A stretch of DNA of 64,000 nucleotides from Microgenomates group bacterium RBG_16_45_19 (GTDB lineage Bacteria; Patescibacteriota; Microgenomatia; UBA1400; RBG-16-45-19): assembly GCA_001803415.1 (NCBI GenBank), contig MHDC01000040.1, positions 21,869-85,868 of the forward strand, written 5' to 3'. Under the pieces are notes generated by a model, which saw only the letters and a list, made by a program, of their open reading frames with translations, was not told the DNA's origin and made no database searches. The position numbers were made by a program, and so were the translations under genes. Positions 11,527 through 59,477 of this stretch are shown here, in pieces (positions within the stretch are counted from its first letter, which is position 1; each line of letters starts with the position of its first letter).

Positions 11527-11541
11527 AAAAGGGAACCACTT

Positions 11542-12033
11542 ATGGAAATCGAATGGACTCAAATATTAATCCAAATGGTCAATTTTGGTTTGATTGTTGT
11601 TGTCCTGACTAAGTTGGTTTATAAACCAATTGTCAAAATCCTCAGCCAACGGACCGATCGTATCGCCTCGAGTCAATTGGACGCCGACAAAACCCGTCAA
11701 CAAAACCAAACCACCAGTCAAGCCGCTCAAGCCGAATTGCTTAAAGCCAAACAAACGGCTGAACAAATTATTCGTGAAGCTCAAAAAGAAGCCCGAGCCG
11801 ATGCCGCCAAAATCTTAGCTGAGGCTAAAATCCAAGCTAAAAAACAAACCGAAACCGAGCGTCAGCAGTCTCAGGCTGAAATGAAAGCGGAAAAAAAGTC
11901 GGTTCTGGGAAAATTAGCTACCTTGGTGACCCAAACCACCGCTCAGGTCCTACAAAACGCCTTATCATCGAAGGAACAACACCAAATTATTGCCTCGCAA
12001 CTCAAAATCATCAAAGGAGTCCGCTTTGACTAA
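11542..12033 (+). CDS. atpF: F1Fo ATP synthase subunit b
   Basis: 163 aa. A single N-terminal TM helix, then a long Ala/Lys/Gln/Glu-rich helix. Confidence 0.85.
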   Translation: MEIEWTQILIQMVNFGLIVVVLTKLVYKPIVKILSQRTDRIASSQLDADKTRQQNQTTSQAAQAELLKAKQTAEQIIREAQKEARADAAKILAEAKIQAKKQTETERQQSQAEMKAEKKSVLGKLATLVTQTTAQVLQNALSSKEQHQIIASQLKIIKGVRFD

Positions 12034-12280
12034 AACCAAACCGGCGACTGCTCCAGTTTTCGTGACTGTGGCCTCGGCTGTGCCCCTGACGCCGGCCGAA
12101 CTGGCCACTCTCGCCGACCTCTTAAGCCGTCAATTAGGGTCCATTACCCTTAAACCGATCGTTAAACCTCAACTGGTGGCCGGCCTGACGCTCACCGTGA
12201 CCGATCGGACGCTCGATTTATCCATCAAACATCGTTTGGAATTACTCCAACATCAACTTGCTCCTCATGCCCAGTCCTAA
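12026..12280 (+). CDS. atpH: F1Fo ATP synthase subunit delta (OSCP), C-terminal-domain-only form
   Basis: Matches only the OSCP C-terminal domain ([12 protein letters not shown]...[25 protein letters not shown]). Likely TTG start at 12026, preceded by AAAGGAG (12013-12019) and overlapping the atpF stop. The ORF-track start at 11990 is also possible. Confidence 0.7.
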
Positions 12281-13787
12281 ACTAATTGACCAGCTGACTC
12301 AGTCGCTTAAAGTCGCTCCTTCAAAACCGACTTTTACTCAAGCCGGTACCATCATTCGTGTCGGTGACGGCATTGCCCTGATTTCCGGCCTGTCCGAAGC
12401 TCGGATGAGTGAACTTTTACTCTTTCCTGGTGGGGTTCGTGGCTTGGTTTTAAACTTGAATCAAGACTCTATTGGCGTGGTCATTTTGGGTAGCGACCTT
12501 CACCTCAAAGCCGGTGACTCGGTTTGGCACACTGACCAACAGTTATCCATACCCGCATCGAAACAGCTGCTTGGTCGGGTCATCACCCCCTTGGGTGATC
12601 CTTTGGATGGCGGTGATCCGATTGTTCCGGATCAAATTATGCCGCTTGAACGTTTGGCTCCCGGAGTCATTGATCGCCAACCGGTCTCGGAGCCTCTCCA
12701 GACCGGTATCAAAGCCATCGATAGCATGATCCCGATCGGCCAGGGTCAGCGCGAGTTGATTATCGGTGACCGTTCTACCGGTAAATCGGCTATTGTCCTC
12801 ACCACCATGATTAACCAACAAGCCGAAAACGTTATTTGCATCTACGTCGCCATCGGCCAAAAGCGCTCATTCGTCGCCCAAACCATCGACACCCTTAAAC
12901 GCTTTAATGCTATGCCTTATTCGATTATTGTCTCGGCTTCGGCTTCCGATCCGGCCCCCTTACAATATCTGGCTCCTTATGCCGGTTGCGCCATCGGTGA
13001 ATACTTTGCTCAAAAAGGTCTTCACGCTTTGGTTATCTACGATGATCTCTCTAAACATGCCTGGGCTTACCGGGAAATGTCGCTCCTTCTTAGACGACCG
13101 TCCGGGCGGGAAGCCTATCCCGGTGACGTCTTTTACCTCCATTCGCGGCTGTTGGAACGGGCAGTCAAGTATTCCACCAAACAGGGTGGGGGTTCCCTGA
13201 CCGCTCTGCCTATAATTGAAACCCAAGCCGGTGACATCTCCGCTTATATCCCCACTAACGTTATTTCCATTACCGATGGTCAAATCTTTTTAGATACCGA
13301 TATGTTTAACGCCGGTCAGCGTCCGGCGGTTAATTTGGGTATCTCGGTTTCCCGCGTTGGTGGTGCTGCTCAAATCAAAGCTATGAAGCAGGTGGTCGGC
13401 TCTCTCAAAATTGATATGGCCCAATTCCGTGAACTAGCCGCCTTTGCTCAATTCTCCTCTGACCTCGATCCTCAGACTCGGTCTCAATTGGAACGCGGTC
13501 AACGGATTACCGAGATCTTAAAACAAGGCTGGGATGAACCAACTCCCGTCGAAGATCAAGTCGCCGTCTTCCACGCCGCTGCTACCGGTTTAATCGATCA
13601 AGTCCAAATCAATTTAGTCAAAACCTGGGAGACCAAGTACCTGGCCTTTCTCCACCATCATCATGCTGATCTGTTAAAAACTATTCACTCCCAAAAAACC
13701 CTTTCCCCGGCTCTGCTGACCGCCCTCAAACAAGCTTCCGACGCCTTCTTAAAGCAGAATCCCGAACTCTTAATCACTCCAGACTAA
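12267..13787 (+). CDS. atpA: F1 ATP synthase subunit alpha
   Basis: Walker [62 protein letters not shown] at 12267 (the track uses TTG 12258) overlaps the atpH end. Confidence 0.95.
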
Positions 13788-13790
13788 CCT

Positions 13791-16083
<2,293 letters not shown>

Positions 16084-16094
16084 CTGCTGACTTT

Positions 16095-16526
16095 ATGCAG
16101 CTCAAATTGGATATTATTACCCAAGAAAAGCATCTTCTTTCCGACACTGTTGACCAGATTACCGCTCCGGCCGCTACCGGTGAAGTCACCATTCTACCCA
16201 ATCATATCCCTCTATTTACTCGGCTAAATGACGGCATTATCCGCTACCGTAAGGGAACGACGGCCATCGAATATGCCGTTCTCGGTGGTTTTATGGATGT
16301 CGCCCCCGGTAGCCACGTCACCATTTTAGCCGACTCGGCTATCCGCTCAGCTGACATCAATCTAGCCAAAGCCGAAGCCGCCAAAGCCAAAGCCGAAGCC
16401 GCCCTCCAAAATAAACAATCCGAAGTCGAGTTCAAGCTCGCCGAAGCCGCCCTGCGTAAAGCCCTCTTGGAATTGAAAGCGGCCCGCCGTCATCATGGCT
16501 CTAACCCCTTACCGTCTGCTGCTTAA
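16095..16526 (+). CDS. atpC: F1 ATP synthase subunit epsilon (full length)
   Basis: 143 aa. N-terminal beta-sandwich (GEVTILPNHIPL) plus a C-terminal Ala/Lys/Glu-rich helical hairpin. Confidence 0.9.
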   Translation: MQLKLDIITQEKHLLSDTVDQITAPAATGEVTILPNHIPLFTRLNDGIIRYRKGTTAIEYAVLGGFMDVAPGSHVTILADSAIRSADINLAKAEAAKAKAEAALQNKQSEVEFKLAEAALRKALLELKAARRHHGSNPLPSAA

Positions 16527-43335: not shown

Positions 43336-44702
43336 AACTCCTCCGTCGCTGGTACTGGCTCAGTTCTGGTTTCTTAAAAAAATACCGTCTGGGTATATTT
43401 ATCAGCCTGCTTATCGGCGTTAGCGCTTTCTTAGCCAGTTTACGCCTGGTACCGATCATGTCCTTTAAACCGACTTATCACCTCGGACGGGTGGCCCGTC
43501 TCCAGGTCAATCAACTTCCCTTGGACATACAGTATCTCCTAAGCACAGGTCTAACTAAAATCGAGGCCAACGGTCAAGTCTCATTATCGGCCGCTCAATC
43601 GATGGATGTCTCTCCCGACGGTAAGACTTACACTTTCACTTTGAAACCCGGTTTGACTTGGTCCGACGGCACCCTAGTCAACACGGCCGATTTGGAACTT
43701 AAACCCAGTGACGTGACGGTGGAAACGCCGACAGCCAGCACCATCATCTTCACCCTCAAGGAACCGTTCGCTCCCTTTCCCTCGGTGGTCAGTCAACCCT
43801 TACTTAAAAAAGTCACTACCGGTCGGCTCTGGCCTCGTTCCCGTCTTATCGGCCTCTATCAGCCCGTGATTACCGATATCCAAACCAAACAGTCATTTGT
43901 CGACCAAGTCCGCCTGGAATTCACCGACAAAACTTACGTCTATCACTTTTATCCCACCGAAGCTGATAGTCTCACCGCCTTCAAATTAGGCCAAGTTGAT
44001 GCCATTACCTCTCTGACCAGACCCTATCTCACCGATTGGTCGTCGGTCGTTATCGATCAAACCCCTCAACCTAACCGTTACGTCGCCCTTTTTTTCAACA
44101 CCGCCCGACCTGAGCTCCAGGATAAAACTGTCAGACAAATGCTCAATTACGCCACCCCCAAAGATTTCACCACCGAACGGGTGATCAGCCCCATTGCCAG
44201 ATCCTCCTGGGTTTATAATCCACAAGTTAAACCCTATCCCTACCAACCTCAAACCGCTAAAGATTTACTCTCTAAATTGCAAACCAGTCAACCCGGATAC
44301 CAGCCCCAATTCACTCTAACCACCACCCCGGCTTACGCCCAAACGGCTCAAGCCATCGCCGCCGCCTGGGCTGATATAGGTCTAGTAGTCGACCTAAAAA
44401 TTGTCCCTTTTCCGGATCCGACCGATTACCAGATTATGCTTATCGGTCAACAAATTCCTGACGACCCTGATCAATACGCTCTCTGGCATTCCACTCAAGG
44501 TACCAATATCAGCCGCTATCAAAATCCCAAAATTGATAAACTCCTCGAAGACGGCCGCAAGGAACTCAATCCCCAAAAACGTCAAGAAATCTACCAAGAA
44601 TTCCAACGCTTCCTGGTTGAAGACAGCCCGGCTGTTTTCCTCTATACCCTGCCTAACTTCAATCTCAGCCGCTCTGCCCCATCCCACCGTTTGCCCAGTT
44701 AA
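43332..44702 (+). CDS. ABC-transporter family-5 (peptide/nickel type) solute-binding protein, membrane-anchored, orphan
   Basis: 456 aa. N-terminal TM anchor. YTFTLKPGLTWSDGTLVNTADL and later blocks are typical of SBP_bac_5. No permease or ATPase genes nearby. GTG start overlaps the secG stop. Confidence 0.65.
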   Translation: MKLLRRWYWLSSGFLKKYRLGIFISLLIGVSAFLASLRLVPIMSFKPTYHLGRVARLQVNQLPLDIQYLLSTGLTKIEANGQVSLSAAQSMDVSPDGKTYTFTLKPGLTWSDGTLVNTADLELKPSDVTVETPTASTIIFTLKEPFAPFPSVVSQPLLKKVTTGRLWPRSRLIGLYQPVITDIQTKQSFVDQVRLEFTDKTYVYHFYPTEADSLTAFKLGQVDAITSLTRPYLTDWSSVVIDQTPQPNRYVALFFNTARPELQDKTVRQMLNYATPKDFTTERVISPIARSSWVYNPQVKPYPYQPQTAKDLLSKLQTSQPGYQPQFTLTTTPAYAQTAQAIAAAWADIGLVVDLKIVPFPDPTDYQIMLIGQQIPDDPDQYALWHSTQGTNISRYQNPKIDKLLEDGRKELNPQKRQEIYQEFQRFLVEDSPAVFLYTLPNFNLSRSAPSHRLPS

Positions 44703-46702
44703 GGCATCAACCGTTTCAGGGCTTCATTCTCCGGCGCTAACAAGATCGCTCGACTGAGCCAAAAGCGGTCAGCCTCGATTTGACTCTCCTGAGATAGTTG
44801 GAGTTGATCTAAATATTGAGTTAGCGACGGTGGCGTGTAAGCGGCGTAAGTGTTGTGGGCTTGGTAGGCCCAATTTGCGATGGCTAACGACTCGGTCAAA
44901 GCCGTTCCTGTGGCCGTCGTTGGTGCCAGGGTCAAAGCCTGCTGCCGTAGTTGTTCGGCCGCTGCCGGGTAGCCTAACCTAGCCCAATAATAAGCCAGCT
45001 GGGCTAGAATCTCTGCCTGTTGAGCTCGGAAACCTTGCCACCACGGGTGTAACCGGTCTTGGCTGACGACTGCTGGTGTTTGATAACCAAATTTGGTTAA
45101 CGGTTCGGGCATCGTCCGGCCGATTGCCAAGGTATAACCGTAGGGAGCCGCATAAAAAGGATTCCCTTCGACTCCTAAAAAGCTAAGTAGGGCCGCACTG
45201 GGATCATACAGAAAGATCGGTTGATTTAAGTCCGACCAAACCGACATGATTCGCTCTAAAGCTTCGGTCTCGGTCGTTAATTTGGCAAATGGCAGCTTAA
45301 TCTGATTTGGTGGCAGCGCCGTCAACTCAAATCTTAACGGTCGCACCTGGATATCTGGCCTTAAACCCAAGACCAACTGTTGATAGAGTAGCGCAAATAT
45401 CAAATCACCATCAACCAATAAATGACTATTCAAGGGTAGGGAATTAAGCACCGCTTGCGCCTGACCGGCCATCACCTCGGGTTGACTTAAGTGGCTCTGG
45501 TTTAACCGCCAACCGGACCACCCACTCATCATTAAACCGGCGACCAAACCCCACCCCAGCCAATTTTGTTTCAGTCTCAACAATTGATCCCAGCCCCAAC
45601 TGGTCATCAACACTAGGGGCAGCGCGGCGGCATACTGCATTCGCCAGCGTAAGGCTAAGCCCCACCAATAAGCCACTTCGTTTGCCGCAGGCCAGGTAGG
45701 AAATCTAAGGTATAGGGCCACCGCCAAACCAGCCAGGCCAAAACTCACTCCCAACCACCAAAAGACTCGGCGTTCCCGTTTAAATAAACTGAATAAGCCC
45801 AATATCGCCAGCCCCAAACCTAAGCCATGGCTCTCTTGCATCCAACCTTTAGCCCAGACTACCGCCGACTGGGTTAACTGCCGACCATCAAACTTGTTGA
45901 CATCCAGCTCAATGGCCGACCCTTGACTGGTATAACTTAAGCGACGATAAAACTTTAAGACCCCACTAACGCTTGGCTCCACCGGCCAGCTATAATCAGC
46001 CTCGTTTCTCGGCCAAATTCCATACAGACTAAACGATAAGCCAAACATTAACCCCAGGCCGATTAAAGCCCTGATCACCCATGGTTTTTGAGATAATCGC
46101 TTGGCTCGTGTCACTTGCCAGCCAAAGATCCAGCTCGGCAAGATCAAGGTCACCGTTAAGGGATGATAAAACAACGCCGCCCCCCCAAACATTCCCGCCC
46201 CCAAGCCATACCACCGCTGTTTATCCATCCGGGTCACCGCCTCCACTAAGCTCCACCAAGCTAAAAGACAGAAACTTTGGGCCAAAGGAAATACCTCCAA
46301 GACTCGCGCATTTAGCCAAGTAGTTTGCCATAAACCAAATCCTACCGCACTTAAACCGGCTGCGGCTAACCAGCGCTTTCGACCCCTTTTGCCAAAACGT
46401 GTCCCGATGGTGTAGCTTAACCCCATTACCAAGCCCACATTCAGGGCACTGATACCACTGTTAAACCGGTTGGCGGCTAAAGCCACTTGAGGTCCCTGAA
46501 ATCCATGAAGCCAGGGATAAAGTAAACTGACCAGATAGGGATAACCGGGGGGGTGAGCCAAACCGCCAAAATAGGCGGCCATGGTTAAATCGTCCGAATC
46601 GGCATAATTCACCGGTCCTTTAAAGGCAAAATAACCATAAAGGCCAAAGAAGCCTAAGCCAATTACCAAGCCGACTAACCTTAATCCTTTCATCAGCCTC
46701 AA
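44699..46702 (-). CDS. DUF2723/TMEM260-like GT-C-fold membrane glycosyltransferase-like protein with C-terminal TPR region (paralog A)
   Basis: 667 aa, more than 10 TM helices. First-loop acidic motif plus signature YADSDDLTMAAYFGGLAHPPGYPYLVSLLY. Soluble C-terminal helical-repeat tail (AQLAYYWARLGYPAAAEQLRQQALTLAP). Confidence 0.7.
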   Translation of the reverse strand: MRLMKGLRLVGLVIGLGFFGLYGYFAFKGPVNYADSDDLTMAAYFGGLAHPPGYPYLVSLLYPWLHGFQGPQVALAANRFNSGISALNVGLVMGLSYTIGTRFGKRGRKRWLAAAGLSAVGFGLWQTTWLNARVLEVFPLAQSFCLLAWWSLVEAVTRMDKQRWYGLGAGMFGGAALFYHPLTVTLILPSWIFGWQVTRAKRLSQKPWVIRALIGLGLMFGLSFSLYGIWPRNEADYSWPVEPSVSGVLKFYRRLSYTSQGSAIELDVNKFDGRQLTQSAVVWAKGWMQESHGLGLGLAILGLFSLFKRERRVFWWLGVSFGLAGLAVALYLRFPTWPAANEVAYWWGLALRWRMQYAAALPLVLMTSWGWDQLLRLKQNWLGWGLVAGLMMSGWSGWRLNQSHLSQPEVMAGQAQAVLNSLPLNSHLLVDGDLIFALLYQQLVLGLRPDIQVRPLRFELTALPPNQIKLPFAKLTTETEALERIMSVWSDLNQPIFLYDPSAALLSFLGVEGNPFYAAPYGYTLAIGRTMPEPLTKFGYQTPAVVSQDRLHPWWQGFRAQQAEILAQLAYYWARLGYPAAAEQLRQQALTLAPTTATGTALTESLAIANWAYQAHNTYAAYTPPSLTQYLDQLQLSQESQIEADRFWLSRAILLAPENEALKRLMP

Positions 46703-47337
46703 TCAACCTTTAGTGGGTGGATAATCTGGGGTAAATCACCTAACGGGGTAAACAAGATTTCTTTAACATCAGTCCCCTCAATTAAACTGATGCTGGCGTT
46801 GAAAGCTGCTTGCTCACCCGGCTTTAACACTTGACTGTTATTCACCGATAAAGCGGCTTTCGGGACAATAATATCGCCGTCTTTCATGATCGACACCGCC
46901 AACAGAGTCGGCAAACCACTACTGACGGCTTTATTGGTCAAAGTGGCATCGACCATAAATTTTCTGGCTGTTGGTTCAGCTAAATTTATTGATAATCTGG
47001 GATAGCTCAAATCCAGCCTATACCCATCATAATCATACATACCCCCTTTGCCGTAATTAACCGCGGTTTCGTCGGGATTTACCGTGGGTTCTGGCTGTTC
47101 AGGACTCGGTTTGGCTAAATCAGTCTCTGACGCTTGTTCACCCAAGACCACTCCGGGCAGGGCTGATTGGGTTAACTGGGCTAAGATGGCTACCGCCTCT
47201 TCCGTCGGCGGCGTCGGTATCAACGAACCGGCTAATAATCGACTCAAGGCAAAAAAGCTGACCACCACCACTAATAACAGCACCACGCCGCTAAACAACA
47301 GTTCTTCCCTAAACTGTGACAAATCCGCCGTTTTCAT
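46699..47337 (-). CDS. Membrane-anchored hypothetical protein with extracytoplasmic beta-rich domain
   Basis: 212 aa. One TM helix (LLFSGVVLLLVVVVSFFAL), a Pro/Glu/Thr linker, then a beta-sandwich-like segment (KFMVDATLTNKAV...VLKPGEQAAFNASISL). ATGA overlaps with both neighbours. Confidence 0.5.
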   Translation of the reverse strand: MKTADLSQFREELLFSGVVLLLVVVVSFFALSRLLAGSLIPTPPTEEAVAILAQLTQSALPGVVLGEQASETDLAKPSPEQPEPTVNPDETAVNYGKGGMYDYDGYRLDLSYPRLSINLAEPTARKFMVDATLTNKAVSSGLPTLLAVSIMKDGDIIVPKAALSVNNSQVLKPGEQAAFNASISLIEGTDVKEILFTPLGDLPQIIHPLKVD

Positions 47338-47870
47338 TTTCGTTTAGCCCGGCTGTTTGAGCGCTTAAATATGGGCGCCACCCAATCAATCCGGTCTGTC
47401 TCCAACCTCAATTGTTCTTCCCATGGTACTTTGGCCAACCCCACAAACACCGGGTCGTTCATGACTGTCCCTGGAAGTTGTTTTTGCCAACGCTTCAAGT
47501 GCCATTCCACTCGCTCCAACATTAAACTCAAAGCCGCCAAGGTTCGCTCCAATCGTTTCCAGGCTTCGGCCGGTGGTTGATCAGCCGCGATCACCTTCAG
47601 GTAGGCGTTTAATTCCGCCTCACTCCTTAAGGCAAATCCTAGCCAACTCTCCAAATATAAGGGTAAATGGACGAGTTGCGCCCAACTGAGTCGGGCGGCC
47701 TGCTGCCGCTCGGCCGGTTGCTCGTCTAAACTCTGATACCATTTGAGCCAAAATCGCTGTCCCGGGCCGCTCTCCAGACTGCGTTTCAGTCTTTTGAGAT
47801 GTTGCTCTAAGGTCTGCTGATATTGTTGGCGCAGCTGTTCACTGGCCGATAAACTTTTCTGCATCTTCAT
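47334..47870 (-). CDS. Hypothetical helical cytoplasmic protein
   Basis: 178 aa, Gln/Leu/Arg/Glu-rich, no TM segment, no recognisable motif. First gene of the minus-strand trio 47870-44699, divergent from the ATPase-like operon. Confidence 0.45.
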   Translation of the reverse strand: MKMQKSLSASEQLRQQYQQTLEQHLKRLKRSLESGPGQRFWLKWYQSLDEQPAERQQAARLSWAQLVHLPLYLESWLGFALRSEAELNAYLKVIAADQPPAEAWKRLERTLAALSLMLERVEWHLKRWQKQLPGTVMNDPVFVGLAKVPWEEQLRLETDRIDWVAPIFKRSNSRAKRK

Positions 47871-47910
47871 CCTTGGCTCTCAGGTTGTTACTATATAAAT
47901 GTAGTTTACC

Positions 47911-49881
47911 GTGAATATGCGCTACTTAAAATGCTTTATCAGCCTTACTATACTCGTTCTGGTTTTTCTTGGCAAAACCACCCCGGCTTCGGCCCAAACT
48001 TTAACCTCTTTTACCTTTGACAATTTTGCCTCCGGCAGCAACAAAACTGCCGGTTTACCCTTCAACCTCACCATCACCGCCCGAGATGAAAATGGTGACG
48101 TTTTAACCACCTTCACCGAGACCACCAACCTGACTGACACCACCGGCACTATCTATCCCACCCAAACTCAAAACTTTACCGCTGGCATTTGGTCAGGTCA
48201 AGCCGCCATCTCCGAAGCTCAGAGTAATGTGGTCATTACCGTTAGCTCCGGTTCAGTCGATGACAACTCCGCCAGCTTTATTGTTGATCCCGATAGCCGG
48301 ATCAAATTCTTGGCGGTTATTGCCGGCAACAACCAAACCGGTCAGGTTTATACCCAACTCTCCACCGCCTTTCAAGTCCGCTCCATCGACCCTTACGGCA
48401 ATCCCTTGACCAATTTAGGGGTGAACTTCGCCATTACCAGTGCGCCGCCTAACGCCACCGGTCAAAGTTTAACTAATTACTCGACTACCACCAATAGCTC
48501 CGGTAACGCCACCACCCTCCTAACCCTGGGTCGTAAAACCGGAACTTATATCGTCTCGGCCGCTCTCACCACCGGTGTGGCTACCAGTGTCCCCTTCTTT
48601 GCCACGGCCACTGCCGGTCCGTTAATCTCTCTAGGCTTAAGCCCCGCGGTTGCCGTCGTTCCGGCTGGAGGCTACTTTCCTTTCACCGTCATTGGCTATG
48701 ACAGCTTTAATAACCAAACCAGCGACCCCTCGGTCACTTGGTCGGTTCAAAACGGTGGCGGCACGATTGACAGTATCGGTGTCTTTTACGCTGGCTCTAC
48801 CCTTGGCACCTACATGAACACAGTCAAAGTTCAAACTACTACCATCGGCACCACCGCTACCGTCGCCATCGTTTCGGCTGCGGGTGAAAGCGGTACTGCC
48901 ACCTATAGCGGTGTGCCTCAACCGACACCCTTACCTACTTTAACCCCGGTCCCCACCCCAACTATGGGCCCCGGGGTGCTCTACGACGTTCAAGTCGATC
49001 CCTCAGTCATCTCCGCTCTCACTAACGCCCGCATTCCCATTATCGCCGAAGGTGTCGATATTTTTGGCAATCAGGTTACCGGTGTTAGTTACACCTTCCA
49101 GACCACCGGTGACTTAGGTACCATTGTCCAAACTGGTCCCACCACCGCCATTCTCCAAACTGGCCCCTCCGGCCTAGGTACCGTTACCGTCACCGCTCAA
49201 CAAGGAGCCATCATTCGGACTGCCAATATTGCCGGCAGTATTGGTAACGGCTTGAATCGCCGTCTGGTCATCGAGGACATTCCCAGTCCCCAAAAAGTCG
49301 GCGTTCCCTTTACCATTTCCATTGCCGCCAAAGATACTCAAAACAACTTTGTCACCGATTATGACGGTCCGATTGTTTTGGCCGATACCACCGCCACCAT
49401 CAACCCTTCGGTGGTCCAACCTAATCAAAACGGTATCTGGTATATTCAAGCAGTTATTAACCTCGCCAATCCGGAAGTCACCATCACCGCCGCCGGTGAT
49501 GGCATGGTTGGTGTTTCCAATATCTTTGCGGTCGAGGGTGAGCCGGCTCAAATTCCCGGTTTGGCGGCTTTAGGTTATGGTGGGGGTGGCCTGGGGACTG
49601 TCCTTGGGGCTTCCATCTCAGCCCTCCTCGAAAAAATGCTTTTGACCGAGGACATCAATCGCTATGGGCTCTTTCGTTACCTTGGTGCCGGCTTTGCCGC
49701 TGGTTTGGGCATTTTAGGCGCTTCTATCGGTGGTGGTTTGATGGTTGCCCGGGGTTTAGAAGCCATCGGCCGCAACCCCTACGCTAAATCACGCCTCCAG
49801 CTCAATCTCTATGCCAGCGTCGCCGCTTTCGTCTTCGCCGCCACTTTGGCGGTTGTCGCCTGCTACCTCATCTTAGGTTAA
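47911..49881 (+). CDS. Secreted Ig-like-domain array fused to a C-terminal ATP synthase c-subunit-like hairpin
   Basis: 656 aa. Signal peptide with AxA site (FLGKTTPASA|QT). About five Ig-like modules, including a Big_1-like block NQTGQVYTQLSTAFQVRSIDPYGNPL...SSGNATTLLTLGRKTGTYIV and Big_2-like blocks, with a Pro/Thr linker (PQPTPLPTLTPVPTPT). Tail [67 protein letters not shown] aligns with this genome's AtpE ([46 protein letters not shown]...). Start GTG 47911 or ATG 47917. Confidence 0.8.
   Translation: MNMRYLKCFISLTILVLVFLGKTTPASAQTLTSFTFDNFASGSNKTAGLPFNLTITARDENGDVLTTFTETTNLTDTTGTIYPTQTQNFTAGIWSGQAAISEAQSNVVITVSSGSVDDNSASFIVDPDSRIKFLAVIAGNNQTGQVYTQLSTAFQVRSIDPYGNPLTNLGVNFAITSAPPNATGQSLTNYSTTTNSSGNATTLLTLGRKTGTYIVSAALTTGVATSVPFFATATAGPLISLGLSPAVAVVPAGGYFPFTVIGYDSFNNQTSDPSVTWSVQNGGGTIDSIGVFYAGSTLGTYMNTVKVQTTTIGTTATVAIVSAAGESGTATYSGVPQPTPLPTLTPVPTPTMGPGVLYDVQVDPSVISALTNARIPIIAEGVDIFGNQVTGVSYTFQTTGDLGTIVQTGPTTAILQTGPSGLGTVTVTAQQGAIIRTANIAGSIGNGLNRRLVIEDIPSPQKVGVPFTISIAAKDTQNNFVTDYDGPIVLADTTATINPSVVQPNQNGIWYIQAVINLANPEVTITAAGDGMVGVSNIFAVEGEPAQIPGLAALGYGGGGLGTVLGASISALLEKMLLTEDINRYGLFRYLGAGFAAGLGILGASIGGGLMVARGLEAIGRNPYAKSRLQLNLYASVAAFVFAATLAVVACYLILG
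49678..49878 (+). other. c-subunit-like helical hairpin domain lacking the ion-binding carboxylate
   Basis: Identical loop EAIGRNP. Counting 18 residues after the loop Pro gives Glu in AtpE but Val (GTC 49831-49833) here. Helix 2 has no Asp or Glu at all. Confidence 0.75.
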
Positions 49882-49951
49882 TCCGTTTGCCTTGCGTTCA
49901 CCGCTTTAGCTTGCTACAGTAGAGACAGATTATCAGTCACTCTATCTGCCC

Positions 49952-50470
49952 ATGGATTCTTGGATTGTTTATACTGGCCTAACCGTCGTTTACATCATTA
50001 TTTTGATCATCTATTTCTTCCGTCGCTCCCGTTCTCATGAACGTGAACTCCACCAATTTCTCCAGGTGGCCGAAGATCAACTCAAACACCGCCAAGCCGA
50101 AATCAATCAGGATGCCAAACAAAAAATTTCCAAAGCTTATTCCCTAGTCAAACAGGTCCATGATATCGCCGCCGCTTTTGAAAAACAGGCTCAAACCGAA
50201 TATGACCAAATCGTTGAGGATGCCAAAGTCGAAAGGCAAGAACTAATCGCCAAAACTAAAACTGACATTGCTGATCTGTTTAAACAGGCAGACCGGGAAA
50301 TTGCCGAATATAAAGCCGCCCGTTTTAAAGAAGTCGAACGCAACCTGGTTAAGCTGGTGATGGCGGTGACTCAAAAGGCTTTAGGTAAAAGCCTGTCCAC
50401 CTCTGACCACCGCCAACTGATCCTCAGCGCCCTGGATGAAGTCATTCAGAAACAAAGTCAAAGTCAATAA
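49952..50470 (+). CDS. ATP synthase b-subunit-like stator protein (second set)
   Basis: 172 aa. One N-terminal TM helix (IVYTGLTVVYIIILIIYFF), then a long charged helix with b-like periodicity (AEINQDAKQKISKAY...EYDQIVEDAKVERQELIAKTK). Confidence 0.7.
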   Translation: MDSWIVYTGLTVVYIIILIIYFFRRSRSHERELHQFLQVAEDQLKHRQAEINQDAKQKISKAYSLVKQVHDIAAAFEKQAQTEYDQIVEDAKVERQELIAKTKTDIADLFKQADREIAEYKAARFKEVERNLVKLVMAVTQKALGKSLSTSDHRQLILSALDEVIQKQSQSQ

Positions 50471-50473
50471 TTT

Positions 50474-51064
50474 ATGCCCGTTTCGCCGTCCAAACTGGCC
50501 CACCAATTTTTTGCCAGTCTTTACACCACTGCCGACGTCAAAGCCGTTTCCGATCAGCTCGAAGCCTTAAGTCAAAACCAGACTTTTAAGGTACACGCTC
50601 ATCGCATCGTTACCGATAGTCAATTAACCGATAATCAAAAAGGGACTCAGCTGCTCTACCTGCTCCGCCAAATCGATCAGCCGTTGCTTTACGATTTTTT
50701 TTCTGACCTCATCAGTGCTCACCATATATGGCTGTTTCATCATGATAAAATCGACTATTTTGACAAATTCGTTCAGGCTTTTCAGCAAGTCATTGATACC
50801 TGCCCGGTTTTCTACTTAACCACCGCCACCCCGCTGCACCCTAGCGATTATCCCGCCCTGATCCAAAAAATCAAAACCGGTCTTGGTCTGCGCGTCCTCC
50901 TCCAGACCAATGTTAATCCTGCCCTAATTGGCGGGGTCCAAGTTAAATTGGAAAATTATCTTTATGATGTCTCGATTCGTTCAAAACTGAATCAATTCCA
51001 AGCTCAATGGTTAAAGACTCTCGATGAATCCGACAGTTTGGTGGGGCACCACGATCCCGGTTAA
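50474..51064 (+). CDS. ATP synthase delta/OSCP-like protein, full length (second set)
   Basis: 196 aa. N-terminal helical domain (LAHQFFASLYTTAD...) and OSCP C-terminal signature (FYLTTATPLHPSDYPALIQKI...VNPALIGGVQVKLENYLYDVSIRSKLNQF). Confidence 0.7.
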   Translation: MPVSPSKLAHQFFASLYTTADVKAVSDQLEALSQNQTFKVHAHRIVTDSQLTDNQKGTQLLYLLRQIDQPLLYDFFSDLISAHHIWLFHHDKIDYFDKFVQAFQQVIDTCPVFYLTTATPLHPSDYPALIQKIKTGLGLRVLLQTNVNPALIGGVQVKLENYLYDVSIRSKLNQFQAQWLKTLDESDSLVGHHDPG

Positions 51065-51066
51065 CT

Positions 51067-52678
51067 ATGACCACGAACAGCCAAACCATCGAAGACGCTT
51101 TGTCCGGTCTGACCACGCCTCCGTCTGACTCCGATGCCACGACCACCCCGGCCGAAACCATTTCTTTTCCGGAAATTCTCGATTATGCCTTCCCTGAGGA
51201 ACCACCAGTCTCCCGTCTTACCCAAGTCGGTGAAGTCACTTACATCGGTGACGGTGTTTGTCAGGTTACCGGTCTTGATCAAGCCAAAATCGATGAAGTC
51301 ATTACCATCAAAACTGGCCGCGGTCAGATCCAAGCGATTATTTTCGGCATCACTCCGGACCGAGTCGAATCGGTTGTCTTAGGTGACTATACTAAAATCA
51401 AGCGAGGGGACGTCGCCCAGTCCTCCGGCAGTCGCTTAAAACTGCCGGTGGGTAAACCGCTCTTAGGTCGAGTTGTCAATCCCTTAGGTCAAGCTATGGA
51501 CAATCAGGGTCGGATTAAAGCCCTTGATTACCACCAATTAGAATTCACCTCCCCCGGAGTGGTTGACCGGGATCCGGTCACCATTCCCCTCCATACCGGG
51601 ATTATGGCCATCGACGCTACTATTCCTATCGGCCGCGGTCAGCGTGAATTGGTTATTGGTGATCGTAAAACCGGTAAAAGCCGAACCATGTTGGACATCA
51701 TCTCCAATCAAAAAAACAATGGTGTCTTTTGTATCTACGTTGGCATCGGTATTCAAGCCGCCAAAGCCAAAGCCACTTACGAACTGTTAAAAGCTCGTGA
51801 GGCCTTATCTTATACCACCATGGTCTTAGCCTTTTCTGATGATCCCCCCTCCCTTCAATATCTAGCCCCTTATGCTGGAGCTGCCTTGGGTGAATACTAT
51901 ATGTACTCTGGCCAACACGCCCTGGTTATCTACGATGACTTGACTAAACAAGCCAAAGCCTATCGCCAAGTCTCTCTCTTGTTAAAACGGTCCCCGGGTC
52001 GGGATGCTTACCCTGGGGATATTTTCTTCCTCCACTCACGCCTCTTGGAAAGAGCCGCCCAACTCAACCACCGTCTTGGTGGTGGTTCCTTAACCTCCTT
52101 ACCCATTGCCGAAACCCAGTCCGGTGATATTTCCGACTACATTATTACCAATCTGATGTCGATTACCGATGGTCACATCTTCCTCGACGCAGCCTTGATG
52201 CATGAAGGCATCATGCCGGCCATTAACTCCGGTGCTTCCGTTTCCCGTATCGGCGGCAAAGTCCAAACCAAGCTCTTGCAAAAGGTCGGTGAATTGGCCT
52301 CTCGGATTCTGGCTCGCTATGAAGAGGTCAAATCCTACGAAACCATCAATACCGAAATTTCAGCCGACACTGTCGCCGAAATCAATCGAGGGAAAAGGCT
52401 TAAGGAAATCTTCGCCCAAGATAGCGATACCCGTTTCACCTTAGCTGAAACAGTCGTTTTTCTGGCCTTGGCTACCTCACCCCAAATGGATCACTTGACT
52501 CTCGACCAGGTTAGGTTCTTCAAGAGTCATTTCCCTCAATTCCTCCGTCAGCAACTGACCACTGATGCCATCCACGCCTTACGCACCGAAACCACTTTAG
52601 CTGCCGTCGCCCCGATTCTTGATAGCCTGATCCAACGCTTTTGCCATGTCAATCAATTACCCCCACCAACCACTCCTT

Positions 52679-52692
<14 letters not shown>
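51067..52692 (+). CDS. F1-type ATPase alpha subunit paralog (second set)
   Basis: 541 aa. Walker [59 protein letters not shown]. About 30 aa of extra Thr/Pro/Asp-rich N-terminus relative to AtpA. Confidence 0.9.
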
Positions 52693-54980
<2,288 letters not shown>

Positions 54981-54982
54981 CT

Positions 54983-55252
54983 ATGCCAGACGAAGTCTTT
55001 AATTTGGTTATAGTTACCCCCGAAACCACTGTCTACGAAGGCCAAGTGGCCAAACTGATTGCCCCCGGCATCTATCAAGACATTGCCATTCTCCCTAACC
55101 ATACTCCGCTTTACGCTCAACTCATCAAAGGCCAGATCCGTTTGACTGATTCGACCGGTCAGGTGGAAACGTTTACCATTGACGGCGGCATCATCAGAGT
55201 CAAACACAATCACGTTTCCGTTATTGTCGGTTTCCACGGTCACTCACCTTAA
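54983..55252 (+). CDS. F1-type ATPase epsilon subunit paralog, beta-sandwich only (second set)
   Basis: 89 aa. LVIVTPETTVYEGQVAKLIAPGIYQDIAILPNHTPL aligns with the AtpC N-domain. The protein ends right after the sandwich, with no C-terminal helical hairpin. Confidence 0.8.
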   Translation: MPDEVFNLVIVTPETTVYEGQVAKLIAPGIYQDIAILPNHTPLYAQLIKGQIRLTDSTGQVETFTIDGGIIRVKHNHVSVIVGFHGHSP

Positions 55253-57276
55253 AAATCAACATAGATCTGGTTCAATCCCCACGGCAGCTCCGCCACTCCT
55301 TGAAGCCTCGATACCGCTTCACCAGCCGTTACCTTACTTGGGTCCAAAGCTAAGCTCAGCCGATATTCCCGTTTGGCTAAAGCTGGCCAACCGGCTGTCT
55401 CTAAAACCTGACCTAAGTTAAATCGGAAGTTAGCCATTCTGGGCTCTAACATCACCGCCCACCAGGCATTTCGCAACCGGCAGGCCGTTGCTTGGTCACC
55501 GGTACACCGCTCCATCGCCTTTATCAGACTTAGACCACCTTGACAAATGCCTGACCCATCTTCACTGGTCGTCTGTTGTTCATACCAGGCTTGACGCCAA
55601 CGCTGGACTAAATTCTCGCCTGGAAATAAAGCCTCGGTTACCTCAGGCATAGAGCTAACTTCTAGAAGACAGTCTAACCGTTGCCAAATATTTCCACTTT
55701 GAGGCAGAAACACACCTTGCCCCAAGCCTAGGAAATCACGATAATAAGGCGTTAACTCGGCCACATAGCTTGGCCTTCCATTCTCTCTAGCCCAGCTGAT
55801 CGCCTCCCCAATCCGAAACGGATTATCCGGGTACCCAATTACGCCAACCTCAGTCCCGGAGACTAAATAAGGACTAGCCGTCACCACCCTTAGATCCTGA
55901 CGTTCCTCTAAAACTTCATTGACATACCATAAACTGAAACAGGTCGCATCCCCTAAACAAATCACCACGGACTCCGGTGGTAGCTGGTCAATAGCCGTCT
56001 TCATCACCGGCCACCACTGGCTCTGGGTAACTTGTCTAATCTGCTCTAAATTACCCGGAAAAATCGCCAGCCACCACATAACGGACAATCCCAATAAAAC
56101 TATCCCCCAGCTTGATCGCTGGCGATTGGCGAGGCTAATAGTATAGGCCGCCCAAAAACCCAGCCACATTAAACCTGGGACATACATCCTGAGGTTAATT
56201 AACCGATCGCCTAAATTAGTTAACTCACTCCCGTCGGTTAGACTCACTGCCAAATAACCACCCACCCCCAAGGTCAATGTCAAAGTCAAAACCAGTAAGC
56301 CCATAAACCAAGTTTTTGGCCAGGTTTTGGCCCCTAAAACCAAGCCCACCAAGGCTAAACCGATGGCTCCCCAGCTCAAATTTTCGACCACCTCGCTAAA
56401 AAAATATCGATAGGCTAAACTCCAAAACTCTTTAAACTTAACCGCCGTCACATAGGTGGTTTGATTGAGGCCGGTCTCGACTCTCAAACCGCCGTAGATA
56501 TCCCGGAAAAAATAAGCCCCCAAGCCTTTGATCCCCGGTGCCCTTAACCAGTGCCAATCCATCGGCGCGGCGGTTAACCAATCCAGCCACCACCATTGAG
56601 CCAAAATCACTAGCAACCAGAGGCCTAAGGCTCGAACCGGAGTCGAGATTTGTCCCTGGCGCCACCATTGTTTGACCAACGGCCCCATCAAAATGACTAA
56701 CCCCGGCACCCACCACCAGCTTAACTGATGATGCATCACCATTAAACCTAAAGTTAAGGCTAAACCATACCAATTCCCGGCCTCTTTCGGTTTGAGGTAC
56801 AACTGACCGATAAACACTAAACTTCCTAAAGCCAATAATAAAGACCAACCCACCACTTCCATGACCACCCCCTGTAACCAAATGGGCACCATACTAAAAA
56901 CCATGATCGTTCCCCAAGCCACCGCCAAGTGATTCATTATTGGTAAACCGGCTTTACCCCCTCGGCTTAATTTAAGACTTTGGTTAAACACCATCCAAAA
57001 ACCGCAACCAGCCAAGGCCATCATTAAGGCTGCTAAGAGATTGACTTGATGCACCGGAGCTAGGGGTAGGGGCAAATGGCTGGTTAAAAAAATTAATCCC
57101 ACCAAGACTGGATAACCCGGTGGATGAGCCGCTTTTAAACCGTAGCCGGCCGCCATCAATTCATCGGCATCAGTTAAACCAGTTGGCGTTGTCGCCGCCG
57201 TCAGAGCATACCAACCAAAGAGCCAAACGAACACTAATCCACCCCAAAAAACCTGATGCCGGTAAAAGCGCTTCAT
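55249..57276 (-). CDS. DUF2723/TMEM260-like GT-C-fold membrane glycosyltransferase-like protein with C-terminal TPR region (paralog B)
   Basis: 675 aa, polytopic. LTDADELMAAGYGLKAAHPPGYPVLVGLIFL, the same signature as paralog A. TPR-like tail (RFNLGQVLETAGWPALAKREYRLSLALDP). Its stop overlaps the epsilon-like stop in TTAA (55249-55252). Confidence 0.7.
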   Translation of the reverse strand: MKRFYRHQVFWGGLVFVWLFGWYALTAATTPTGLTDADELMAAGYGLKAAHPPGYPVLVGLIFLTSHLPLPLAPVHQVNLLAALMMALAGCGFWMVFNQSLKLSRGGKAGLPIMNHLAVAWGTIMVFSMVPIWLQGVVMEVVGWSLLLALGSLVFIGQLYLKPKEAGNWYGLALTLGLMVMHHQLSWWWVPGLVILMGPLVKQWWRQGQISTPVRALGLWLLVILAQWWWLDWLTAAPMDWHWLRAPGIKGLGAYFFRDIYGGLRVETGLNQTTYVTAVKFKEFWSLAYRYFFSEVVENLSWGAIGLALVGLVLGAKTWPKTWFMGLLVLTLTLTLGVGGYLAVSLTDGSELTNLGDRLINLRMYVPGLMWLGFWAAYTISLANRQRSSWGIVLLGLSVMWWLAIFPGNLEQIRQVTQSQWWPVMKTAIDQLPPESVVICLGDATCFSLWYVNEVLEERQDLRVVTASPYLVSGTEVGVIGYPDNPFRIGEAISWARENGRPSYVAELTPYYRDFLGLGQGVFLPQSGNIWQRLDCLLEVSSMPEVTEALFPGENLVQRWRQAWYEQQTTSEDGSGICQGGLSLIKAMERCTGDQATACRLRNAWWAVMLEPRMANFRFNLGQVLETAGWPALAKREYRLSLALDPSKVTAGEAVSRLQGVAELPWGLNQIYVDF

Positions 57277-57278: not shown

Positions 57279-59477
57279 CTACTCCTGGGCAGGCTGGTGG
57301 TAATAATGCTCCAGACTTAAGGCGATTATTTTGGCTTTATTACGATTGACTACGGCCGGCAACGGTAAACTTAAACCGGTAAACGGTTCACTGGTTAAAC
57401 CGTCAATGGCTAACTTGAGCAGCAATTCATACTTGCCTAAAGCCACCATTTCCGCGGCCGTCACCTTACCCCCAAATTCCTTCTCTAGTAAGGCGGCATC
57501 CCGGGCACCGACGACAAAAGCCATGGTTGAACCGACATTGCCGAAAATGGCTTTTTGGATCTCTTCATCCACCTGACCGATATATTGGTTGGCCAACACC
57601 AAATTGAGACGGTATTTTCGAGCTTCCGATAAAATCTTAATAAATGAATGAGTCGCAAAATTTTGAAACTCGTCCACATAGAGGTAGAAATCCTGCCGCT
57701 GCTCTTCGGGTAAGTGTACTCGCCTCATCGCTGTCAACTGGATCTTGGTAATAAACATCGCCCCCAGCAATGCAGTGGTATCCTCGCCCAGTTTTCCTTG
57801 AGCCAAGTTTAACAGCAGGATCTTTTTCTGATTCATGACCGTTTCCAAGGAAAAGGTTGACTTCCGACTACCCACGATTTGTCTAATCCGTCTGGAAGAA
57901 ATAAACTGGCCCACTTTATTTAAAATGGGGGAAATGGCTTCAACTCTCAGCCTATCATTCATCCGGGCAAACTCATCTTCCCAAAAGGCTGCGATCACCG
58001 GATCCTTCCCCTTTATTTTCGCTACCACTCTTTGGCGGAAGGCCTCGTTGGTCAACAGTTTCACGATATCCGCAAACGTGGCTTCCTCATAATATAGCAA
58101 GGTCAATATGGCGTTGCGTAATATATATTCCAGTCTCGGTCCCCAAGAATGGGCATATAATTTATAAAACACCGAAATGATGCCTGAAGCCACCACGTCG
58201 GTATGATCTTGGCCTTCGGCATCAAACAGATTCAAGGCAAAAGCTTTTTCCTCACTTAAAGTCGGATCCAGATAAACCACGTCATTTAACCGACGTTTGG
58301 GAATATATTCCAAGATCATCTGGGATAAATCCCCGTGGGGATCAATCACCGCCACCCCCTCACCGTGTCTGATATCATTGATAGCCATGTTAGCGATCAG
58401 AGTCGATTTCCCTGCGCCAGTTTTGCCGATCAGGTACAAATGTTTCCGCCGGTCATCTCTTTTGATCCCAAAATTTACTCGTTGGTTATGCCATTCGGTC
58501 TGTCCAAAAAAATTAATCTCGGCTTTTACCATTACTTCCATTCCCGGCAGATTCACCGGTAAATTATCCGGGGCTTCAGTCAACATGGTCCGGCCCCAAT
58601 CAATGGCCTTGATCCCGGCCAACTTTTCATCGGGTAAATGCCATAAAGACGCCGTCTCATGCAAATTTAGGATCAAACCTTTTTGAGTCCGGCTCAACCG
58701 TCTTTGGCCGACAGCTCGCCACCAGCGTCGCTTATACCAAGTACTCACTCTTGACCAAGTCAAACTGTTACCTTCTGCCAAAGAGTAAACACCATATAAC
58801 CCCGCTATCTCAGCCAAGTTGGCTTGCGCTTGCTCTCCCGTAGCGGCGGTGCTTAATAACCTGAGCTGTCCAGCCAATAGTGGTGCCGCTAATTTCTCCT
58901 GATACAAACGACTGTAAGGACTAGCTGTTTCAGTCCCACGGTCATTAAGTTGGCGCATCGCCCCGCGAATCACCCGTTCTAATTTACCTTGGGGTGGCAC
59001 TTTAACTACCAGCTGAATGCCGACACTCTCCCCAGCTTTTAATTTAGCCAAATAACCTAAAATCGTGGCTAACGGTGGCAATTCCTTGGTTTCCCGGTAG
59101 GTTTTTAAGGGTAGGGGATAGACTTGCTGCAAATTTAAATAGCCGCCGACGCTGACTCCCGATCGGTACAATCGGTCTAAGGGGTCAGTCTCGACCTGAC
59201 TGATCAAGGTTCTGGGGTAATAACTGGTGATTTGGGTCCCTAAATATTTCACCACCGCTTGAGGAGCCGTCAGATAAAACTGACTTTTTTGGTCTATCGA
59301 AAAGATTTCCAGCGCTAGTTCCGGAGCCTTTTGACCCCAAAGTCGCTGCCACCGGCTGCGTCGCCCTAAAGCCAGAAAAGCGCCTAAAACTCCCGTCATT
59401 ACTTCAGGTGAAATGATTCGGGTCTTGTCCGGTTGGCACCTGATACTCACCAGAGTCATATATTTTTCAGTATACAC
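57279..59477 (-). CDS. TraD/VirD4/FtsK-HerA-superfamily P-loop ATPase (type IV coupling-protein-like), orphan
   Basis: About 726-732 aa. Walker A LIGKTGAGKST, Walker B FYLYVDEFQNFAT, and RKYRLNLVLANQY typical of TraD/VirD4-like ATPases. 2-nt gap to the downstream DUF2723 gene. Start GTG 59477, or ATG 59459 lying 9 nt after TATACT on the minus strand. Confidence 0.7.
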   Translation of the reverse strand: MYTEKYMTLVSIRCQPDKTRIISPEVMTGVLGAFLALGRRSRWQRLWGQKAPELALEIFSIDQKSQFYLTAPQAVVKYLGTQITSYYPRTLISQVETDPLDRLYRSGVSVGGYLNLQQVYPLPLKTYRETKELPPLATILGYLAKLKAGESVGIQLVVKVPPQGKLERVIRGAMRQLNDRGTETASPYSRLYQEKLAAPLLAGQLRLLSTAATGEQAQANLAEIAGLYGVYSLAEGNSLTWSRVSTWYKRRWWRAVGQRRLSRTQKGLILNLHETASLWHLPDEKLAGIKAIDWGRTMLTEAPDNLPVNLPGMEVMVKAEINFFGQTEWHNQRVNFGIKRDDRRKHLYLIGKTGAGKSTLIANMAINDIRHGEGVAVIDPHGDLSQMILEYIPKRRLNDVVYLDPTLSEEKAFALNLFDAEGQDHTDVVASGIISVFYKLYAHSWGPRLEYILRNAILTLLYYEEATFADIVKLLTNEAFRQRVVAKIKGKDPVIAAFWEDEFARMNDRLRVEAISPILNKVGQFISSRRIRQIVGSRKSTFSLETVMNQKKILLLNLAQGKLGEDTTALLGAMFITKIQLTAMRRVHLPEEQRQDFYLYVDEFQNFATHSFIKILSEARKYRLNLVLANQYIGQVDEEIQKAIFGNVGSTMAFVVGARDAALLEKEFGGKVTAAEMVALGKYELLLKLAIDGLTSEPFTGLSLPLPAVVNRNKAKIIALSLEHYYHQPAQE

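Follow-up and report, generated by a model that had tools for sequence, protein, structure and literature searches.

To our knowledge, every characterised ring of the F-, V- and A-type ATPases couples rotation to ions through a membrane carboxylate and an arginine of the a/I-subunit. In the canonical F1Fo enzyme (PF00137; for example PS3, PDB 1wu0/6n2d, and E. coli AtpE) the c-subunit is a hairpin with a GxGxGxG-type motif in helix 1 and an R-(Q/N)-P loop, and in canonical F-type operons its gene heads a b-delta-alpha-gamma-beta-epsilon string. All of these traits recur in a gene set that we describe here from a 64,000-nucleotide stretch of DNA (the window; contig MHDC01000040.1, positions 21,869 to 85,868) of Microgenomates group bacterium RBG_16_45_19, whose genome belongs to the candidate phyla radiation (CPR). 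Two sets of F-type ATPase genes lie in the window. One is the canonical operon atpBEFHAGDC (10445-16526; genes a, c and b, then a short delta, followed by alpha, gamma, beta and epsilon). The other, operon 2 (47911-55252, + strand), reads cfus-b-delta-alpha-gamma-beta-epsilon, where cfus (47911..49881, + strand) is an open-reading frame (ORF) of 656 aa whose product starts with a signal peptide, continues with five Ig-like domains and ends in a c-subunit-like hairpin. Unlike a canonical c-subunit, such a fusion has no Asp or Glu in its helices, comes without an a gene, and carries a signal peptide and an extracellular domain of 180-2600 aa. Our favoured reading, to which we give a probability of roughly 0.55, is that the hairpin supplies the membrane ring of a second F-type ATPase, a dedicated one that drives extracellular arms mechanically; the core of this reading, a separate complex that translocates no ions, we hold with high confidence.

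Several described systems share some of these features. The nearest functional analogy is with the Type 2 and Type 3 F1-like X0 ATPases of mycoplasmas, in which a second F1-type ATPase likewise stands beside a genuine synthase in a small, host-dependent bacterium and has no ion-translocating Fo. These enzymes serve the gliding motor of M. mobile and MIB-MIP antibody cleavage, ATP being used for extracellular work (PMC3369863, PMC12994834, PMC11864180), and their coupling to the surface systems is unknown and possibly non-rotary (PMC12994834). The mycoplasma seven-gene clusters have no c-like ring, however, and their membrane partners are unrelated, for example a 12-transmembrane (TM) protein, whereas operon 2 encodes b, delta and a c-like subunit; its alpha and beta (alpha2 and beta2) fall under the cut-offs of the MMOB1660/1670 and MSC_0618/0619 models (349/600, 420/850, 258/520 and 415/570). 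The N-ATPase (atpDCQRBEFAG) is also a second F-type operon beside a primary rotary ATPase, but it keeps a- and c-subunits with the Na+/H+ Glu, encodes AtpQ/AtpR and is ordered beta-epsilon-Q-R-a-c-b-alpha-gamma; against the alt_F1F0 models alpha2 scored 467 (cut-off 750) and beta2 520 (cut-off 752), which leaves operon 2 outside the N-ATPases. Single hairpins can lose the carboxylate, as in c1 of Acetobacterium woodii, V-type proteolipids and the multi-hairpin K subunits of archaea, yet in those rings other hairpins keep it, an a/I-subunit is present and ions still move, whereas in the fusions every hairpin has lost it. The flagellar and type III secretion export complex FliI-FliJ-FliH offers an F1 homologue with gamma-like and b/delta-like partners that is not used for ion transport, but FliI is a homohexamer on the FlhA export gate, whereas operon 2 has an alpha3beta3-type pair, gamma, epsilon, delta and a c-like ring. 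ProAD lists 20 F/N enzymes with ‘non-catalytic’ c-subunits, with no analysis and a supplement that names no taxa (PMC11738941). We found no description of c-subunit fusions, of carboxylate-less F-type rings or of a-less CPR F-type operons in a literature survey of incomplete coverage, so that an earlier description is possible; the family is an apparently undescribed, wide and conserved class of F-type ATPase, and the odds that its function is of a categorically new kind are substantial.

The hairpin takes up the last 67 codons of the 656-codon cfus gene, the product of which matches a hypothetical protein of Microgenomates group bacterium RBG_16_45_19 at 100% identity and hits two Pfam families, Big_1 and ATP-synt_C. 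Scored alone, the tail reaches 26.3 bits against ATP-synt_C (PF00137), above the 24-bit cut-off; scored within full-length cfus the hairpin reaches 21.2 bits, below it, and it missed all NCBIfam c-subunit equivalogs (29.5 bits against cut-offs of at least 71). A phmmer search of all PDB sequences returned the Bacillus PS3 c-subunit at E = 2.5e-8, with both helices covered. AlphaFold folds the tail into a hairpin of two helices (584-619 and 626-655), and all 46 Foldseek matches of this model in the PDB are rotary-ATPase c/K subunits (best root-mean-square deviation 2.0 Å, probability 0.97), the Foldseek E-values being weak owing to the short domain. Helix 1 (residues 584-619; 49660..49767, + strand) carries the c-ring packing glycine motif GAGFAAGLGILGASIGGG and can be aligned, gap-free, with the first helix of solved c-subunits. 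The cytoplasmic loop that follows, G620-R621-N622-P623-Y-A (GGCCGCAACCC; 49768..49785, + strand; net charge +3), is the counterpart of the c-subunit R-Q/N-P loop that contacts gamma and epsilon, and helix 2 (residues 626-655; 49786..49875, + strand) is without Asp or Glu. Profile similarity and a glycine-rich two-TM hairpin with an R-Q/N-P loop, two of the marks of the c-subunit family, are thus both present, and these comparisons mark the cfus tail as a genuine F-type c-subunit homologue.

The third mark of the family, an Asp or Glu at mid-membrane in the column of E. coli D61, is absent, and Val641 (codon GTC, 49831..49833, + strand) stands in its place. A first-pass annotation, made by a model from the letters of this DNA, had counted 18 residues from the loop proline to the essential Glu in the canonical AtpE of the window (78 aa; 11290-11526; ATP-synt_C, 67.8 bits) and had found that an equal count in the fusion lands on Val; we reproduced the count, and its placement on the GTC codon is exact, with the loop starting at 49768. 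The annotation had proposed that the D61 column be inspected in a broad profile or in structures. Against solved structures no acidic residue occupies it: PS3 (1wu0/7wem), Chloroflexus (9itj) and B. pseudofirmus OF4 (3zo6) all have their essential Glu opposite V641 in gapless alignments. The sole acidic residue in the vicinity, E617, is a loop-proximal Glu that is also present in canonical c-subunits.

To place this substitution we turned to orthologues. A search space of 5.8 billion proteins yielded 85 full-length orthologues of cfus (45-73% identity, all ~650 aa, reading frames intact), of which 81 were aligned. Helix 1 (589-614) and helix 2 (627-656) are free of Asp and Glu in all 81, so that the earlier observation of helices without acidic residues holds for this protein and for its orthologues alike. 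Functional A24D/D61 variants of E. coli show that the carboxylate can sit in helix 1 (PDB 1l6t); such a move is ruled out here, with an Asp or Glu at 589-614 in 0/81 orthologues. Column 641 is a variable hydrophobic position (43 Ile, 23 Val, 14 Leu and 1 Met), whilst G594, G598, G600, G603, G607 and G608 of helix 1 and G620, R621, N622, P623 and A625 of the loop are invariant, as are N632 and Y634, two polar residues of helix 2. By region, the loop (615-626) is the most conserved part of the protein (0.93), followed by TM1 (0.82), the fifth Ig-like domain (0.82) and TM2 (0.67), and the first Ig-like domain is the least conserved (0.60), conservation of the arm climbing towards the membrane from 0.60 to 0.82. 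The variable positions of TM2 (631, 635, 638, 642, 645, 649 and 652) form one helical stripe, as expected of a lipid-exposed face that would have no protein partner. With glycines and loop conserved and the ion column variable, selection therefore keeps the ring-packing and F1-docking features and ignores the ion site.

The same pattern extends well beyond the close orthologues. A profile of the tail matched 504 of 1.84 billion representative proteins, and we examined the best 150 of these 504, to which the following counts apply. Thirty-seven single-hairpin proteins of at least 180 aa (186-2672 aa) have Ile, Leu, Val or Ala in the ion column in 37/37 cases, and none of the 37 has an Asp or Glu anywhere in either helix. 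The short single-hairpin matches are canonical c-subunits, 36 with Glu or Asp in the column, and the multi-hairpin K/c subunits (for example P0093 and P0113) have Glu or its known Gln replacement, the latter in 31 hairpins. We considered the multi-hairpin matches as family members and rejected them as ordinary Glu-bearing K/c subunits, which served as alignment controls. Carboxylate loss is therefore perfectly correlated with fusion to an N-terminal extracytoplasmic domain among these matches, and the loop signature differs too, GRNPEA in canonical c-subunits against GRNP[YFLM]A[KR] in the fusions. Named family members belong to Candidatus Beckwithbacteria, Gottesmanbacteria, Saccharimonadales and unclassified Patescibacteria. 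The extracellular part varies between Ig-like chains, NHL/Kelch giants of up to 2672 aa, and small domains accompanied by a giant protein encoded beside the operon, whilst the hairpin is constant. With the loop EAIGRNP[YFLM]A[KR], the hairpin is found widely as the C-terminal module of extracellular proteins (P0098-P0125 and P0131-P0230; Ig-like, NHL and Kelch-associated).

These counts bear on the possibility that the Glu was lost recently from a redundant paralogue, that is, that cfus is a decaying duplicate or a sequencing artefact, which the first-pass annotation had suggested be checked in related genomes. The presence of a second, canonical operon is the only point in its favour. Against it, there are 85 intact full-length orthologues with a mean column identity of 73% in the tail, the column is without Asp or Glu in all 81 aligned orthologues and all 37 distant fusions, the loss is common to Microgenomates, Gottesmanbacteria and Saccharimonadales, and two base changes separate GTC from a Glu codon. 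We regard decay or artefact as extremely improbable, and the alignments indicate that carboxylate loss is a conserved state of the family, not a lesion.

The other half of the ion path is missing as well. Operon 2 encodes no a-subunit with its essential Arg, and tblastn with the a-subunit of the window and that of E. coli (E up to 10) found none in operon 2 or in ~30 related loci, whilst the same search did recover the canonical operon of the window and two control loci with ordinary c-subunits (L025 and L026). A hydropathy scan of all loci for a hidden a-subunit gave only TMEM260-like, SecDF, MacB/FtsX, holin-like and unassigned polytopic proteins; inside the operons no polytopic gene occurs, except one TMEM260-like gene in L001. 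Intergenic gaps of at most 70 nt leave no room within operon 2 for extra small ORFs. This agrees with the first-pass annotation, which had noted that the fusion ring has no a-subunit gene and had argued against a ring that borrows the canonical a-subunit (10445-11260; Pfam ATP-synt_A, 143 bits) to move H+ or Na+.

That argument is upheld by the missing carboxylate, the missing a gene of its own and the dedicated stalk and F1 genes described below. A ring that translocates ions after all, through the canonical a-subunit or through non-carboxylate ligands, could appeal to the a gene in the same genome and to the invariant polar residues N632 and Y634. N632, however, aligns with an ordinary polar Asn/Thr of canonical c-subunits near the cytoplasmic end, nine residues before the ion site; the carboxylate column is a variable hydrophobic position; neither helix has an acidic residue in 81/81 orthologues and 37/37 distant fusions; and no a gene accompanies the operon in ~30 loci. 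We know of no F-, V- or A-type ring that works without the carboxylate, and we consider ion translocation in any form very unlikely. For a homomeric ring of fusions, which could not exchange ions with the arginine of the canonical a-subunit because the carboxylate is absent, translocation of H+ or Na+ is excluded on the strength of its sequence.

What operon 2 does encode is a complete stalk and F1 sector. The gene after cfus (b2; 49952..50470, + strand) specifies a 172-aa b-like peripheral-stalk subunit with one N-terminal TM helix and a coiled coil, with weak NCBIfam matches to F0F1 subunit B, all under cut-off, and a weak FliH match (E = 0.0066). It is followed by a full-length delta/OSCP (delta2; 50474..51064, + strand; 196 aa; Pfam OSCP, 54.9 bits, profile 18-170). 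The canonical delta (11990-12280, + strand; 96 aa) matches only the C-terminal part of the OSCP profile (103-172 of 172), and so lacks the N-terminal domain, by which delta normally binds the N-termini of alpha. The alpha2 gene (51067..52692, + strand) encodes 541 aa with the P-loop GDRKTGKS and the arginine finger SVSRIGG (NCBIfam atpA, 520.5 bits, cut-off 484) and has an N-terminal extension of ~25 residues relative to the canonical alpha1. The gamma2 ORF (52646..53566, + strand; 306 aa; Pfam ATP-synt, 145 bits) probably has its true start at Met12, near 52679, as NCBIfam alignments begin at residue 12, and the beta2 ORF (53523..54980, + strand; 485 aa, start uncertain) contains Walker A GGAGVGKT, the catalytic motif GERTREG and Walker B (NCBIfam atpD, 605.8 bits, cut-off 462.9). 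The last gene (54983..55252, + strand) encodes a short epsilon2 of 89 aa with the beta-sandwich domain only (Pfam ATP-synt_DE_N) and without the C-terminal inhibitory helices, compared with 143 aa and both domains (PF00401 included) in the canonical epsilon; epsilon measures 89-105 aa in every fusion-type operon seen. The F1 sector is thereby represented by alpha, beta, gamma and delta plus epsilon, with catalytic motifs, and alpha2 and beta2, with intact motifs and scores above the atpA and atpD cut-offs, look catalytically competent. A scan for promoters and terminators across 47300-55600 gave counts at chance level.

This second F1 is not a copy of the first. Between operon 2 and the canonical set of the same genome, identity is 42% for alpha, 51% for beta, 27% for gamma and 32% for epsilon, and alpha and beta from three distant fusion loci (L030, L031 and L033) match alpha2/beta2 better than alpha1/beta1, by 110-180 bits. 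In a neighbour-joining tree rooted on alpha, the betas of fusion operons (long-branch L028 excluded) are monophyletic in 100/100 bootstraps, as are canonical CPR betas (100/100). The separate beta clade and the higher scores to alpha2/beta2 therefore point to a second F1 that is an old paralogous lineage, inherited with the fusion gene. We place the ring in a separate complex because operon 2 has b, delta, alpha, gamma, beta and epsilon genes of its own. Canonical beta homologues and cfus orthologues are found on contigs of the same size in six further assemblies (433,869; 291,653; 187,660; 152,604; 111,062 and 77,395 bp), and from these matching sizes we infer that both enzymes co-occur in six further genomes.

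The fusion gene keeps the same company elsewhere. We compared 20 loci drawn from metagenomes and from GTDB species representatives: cfus, b2 and delta2 cluster in 20/20 and are directly contiguous in 19/20, ~2.5 kb of other ORFs lying between cfus and b2 in L010; alpha2-gamma2-beta2-epsilon2 then follow in most, sometimes rearranged (orthologous loci given the same architecture: L001 and L005-L022). The b2-like gene adjoins the fusion gene in the distant loci L030, L031 and L033 too. In the first two the gene order is unchanged (fusions of 680 aa and 697 aa) and in L033 (756 aa) a sortase gene lies upstream (6417-7028). Shorter fusions occur in L028/L029 (264 aa) and in the Gottesmanbacteria locus L034 (283 aa), where a giant gene stands after epsilon, in L028 and L034 directly after it and in L034 encoding at least 2681 aa. 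The Saccharimonadales-type loci L027 and L002 encode a giant fusion (>1000 to 2653 aa, NHL/Big_1), then a giant Kelch/fn3 protein, a MacB-type ATP-binding cassette (ABC) transporter, and b-like and OSCP subunits before the contig ends. In all, this arrangement is seen in at least seven independent contexts, spread over Microgenomates, Gottesmanbacteria and Saccharimonadales. Many of the metagenome-assembled genomes in third-party-annotation (TPA) records with the CPR-type operon are labelled ‘uncultured Pseudomonadales’ or ‘Gammaproteobacteria’ (L005, L008-L011, L013-L017, L019, L021, L022 and L024), which is almost certainly a taxonomic mislabel.

The same loci speak to a hybrid arrangement, in which a few fusion subunits would sit within the canonical c-ring, as the carboxylate-poor c1 does in A. 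woodii, so that the arms decorate an ordinary ATP synthase. Over 40 residues, helix 1 and the loop share ~50% identity with the canonical AtpE, rings of mixed subunits are known (PDB 4bem), and a sub-clade with cfus-b-delta only might share the canonical F1. Most operons, however, encode their own alpha, gamma, beta and epsilon, which form a separate clade with 27-51% identity to the canonical set, and the dedicated b and delta imply a separate stator; we judge the hybrid ring improbable, if less so than a ring that moves ions. The sub-clade in question (L003/L021, L020 and L023) is the most divergent and Beckwithbacteria-like, and its F1 genes may lie elsewhere or the canonical F1 be shared.

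The remainder of the fusion protein suggests where the output of such a complex would go. The AlphaFold2 model of cfus has a mean predicted local distance difference test (pLDDT) score of 80.9. It begins with a Sec-type signal peptide (residues 1-27, ...TTPASA|QT; 47911..47991, + strand; model helix 3-21, with the n, h and c regions read from the sequence), probably cleaved after ASA at residue 27, which is predicted to place the N-terminal domains outside the cell. The extracellular arm (47998..49536, + strand; defined from the AlphaFold2 model, pLDDT and Pfam Big_1) comprises Ig-like domains at ~30-126, 130-234, 238-321, 372-444 and 450-542, with a disordered Thr/Pro-rich linker (326-368) between the third and fourth. 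A Foldseek search with the full cfus model returned only generic matches to multi-Ig chains, such as titin, the S-layer proteins SbsC/EA1 and invasin. Between the arm and TM1, on the outer face, lie a flexible linker rich in Gly (545-563) and an amphipathic helix that is conserved (564-580, GASISALLEKMLL), together spanning 49543..49650 (+ strand); pLDDT is low at 553-577, overlapping a model helix at 565-579, and among the orthologues G566 is invariant and S568 nearly so. Because the protein has a signal peptide and two TM helices, its predicted topology is N-out, loop-in and C-out as in canonical c-subunits, with the RNP loop facing F1. Helix 1 is the inner helix in solved c-rings (for example 1yce and 2wie), so the arms would leave from the centre of the outer face of the ring.

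Under the favoured reading of a dedicated, mechanically coupled F-type ATPase, the hairpins would form a homo-oligomeric ring, gamma2 and epsilon2 would dock on its loops, and b2/delta2 would hold alpha3beta3. ATP hydrolysis would then turn or torsionally load the ring, and without an ion path the energy would go into mechanical work on n extracellular arms, which would leave helix 1 via the conserved amphipathic helix and the Gly-rich linker, as rotation, winding or a conformational stroke. Since the extracellular domain varies widely while the hairpin stays constant, the system looks like a generic ATP-powered base that would move or tension adhesin-like surface structures in episymbiotic bacteria. 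A more specific version, in which the F1 motor spins or winds an ion-path-free c-ring with adhesin-like arms, a rotor or winch acting on the cell surface or the host and a new class of rotary ATPase widespread in the CPR that would give the F-type enzyme a third role next to making ATP and pumping ions, we offer only tentatively and think rather doubtful.

Several observations weigh against mechanical drive. Ring formation and F1 docking are read from conserved motifs, and the link between arm and ring includes the low-confidence Gly-rich stretch 553-577, which would be a poor conductor of torque unless the amphipathic helices, n in number, came together in a bundle. No stator anchored in the wall was identified, b2 has only one TM helix, and rotating many long arms through a cell wall would be physically awkward. 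L003/L021, L020 and L023 cluster only cfus-b-delta, with no F1 genes within 10 kb, so that a dedicated F1 may not be universal in the family, and the beta of L028, of the short-fusion class, falls outside the fusion-operon clade in the neighbour-joining tree.

Some of the same features would suit a non-rotary scaffold or switch, the main rival, in which the ring is an oligomeric anchor that displays surface proteins and F1, instead of rotating it continuously, drives limited conformational change, assembly or regulation; it would resemble the mycoplasma F1-like X0 enzymes. A flexible Gly-rich linker, the absence of an identifiable stator anchor and variable cargo on a constant anchor all fit such a device, as do the neighbouring MacB-type ‘mechanotransmission’ ABC transporters of the Saccharimonadales loci and the precedent of F1-like ATPases serving surface machinery (PMC12994834). 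A passive anchor, however, hardly explains why the loop is the most conserved region of the protein, and the complete rotary set of gamma, epsilon, b, delta and a c-type ring with docking loop has been kept; we think the scaffold or switch unlikely, though it comes well ahead of the hybrid ring.

Around operon 2, two genes for TMEM260-like O-mannosyltransferases of GT-C type (Pfam PF11028) lie on the opposite strand, one upstream (44699..46702, - strand; 43.6 bits) and one downstream (55249..57276, - strand; 39.5 bits). Eukaryotic TMEM260 O-mannosylates Ig-like IPT domains, from which glycosylation of the arm may be inferred by analogy, and the two enzymes may act on the Ig-like arm or the Thr/Pro-rich linker. 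TMEM260-like genes recur at orthologous loci in one to three copies (L001 6720-8765, 13156-15048 and 19374-21317; L019 361-7163), in L001 with one copy between delta2 and alpha2. Divergent from cfus are genes for a 212-aa single-TM protein with an extracellular domain (46699-47337, - strand) and a 178-aa helical cytoplasmic protein (47334-47870, - strand), neither with a Pfam or NCBIfam family; both were considered as universal subunits and rejected, as they lie upstream of cfus in the Microgenomates clade only and tblastn found no homologue beside the distant operons. A TrwB/VirD4/HerA-like coupling-type ATPase (731 aa; 57279-59477, - strand) is a conserved downstream neighbour (56-78% identity; L001, L005, L007, L008 and L010), and its place next to operon 2 may merely reflect synteny. 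Secreted proteins of ~390 aa without a family match follow epsilon in L030 (17750-18898) and L033 (14793-15986), and these and the L033 sortase are possibly further surface components.

The family thus keeps the whole rotary apparatus, drops both halves of the ion path and adds large extracellular domains to each ring subunit. The labels that its proteins bear at present are ‘F0F1 ATP synthase subunit c’, ‘F-type H+-transporting ATPase subunit c’ and ‘hypothetical’, and in metabolic reconstructions of the CPR the second operon would be counted as a second proton ATPase. Rotary ATPases are said, in the hypothesis of Mulkidjanian and Koonin, to have arisen from non-ion-coupled translocases, and a ring that works with F1 without ion binding bears on that proposed origin. 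Should assembly follow what the motifs suggest, rotary ATPases would be usable as transmissions that carry ATP-driven mechanical work across a membrane, and the family would be a testable candidate for how the ultra-small, metabolically poor episymbionts of the CPR move, tension or remodel their surface and host-contact structures.

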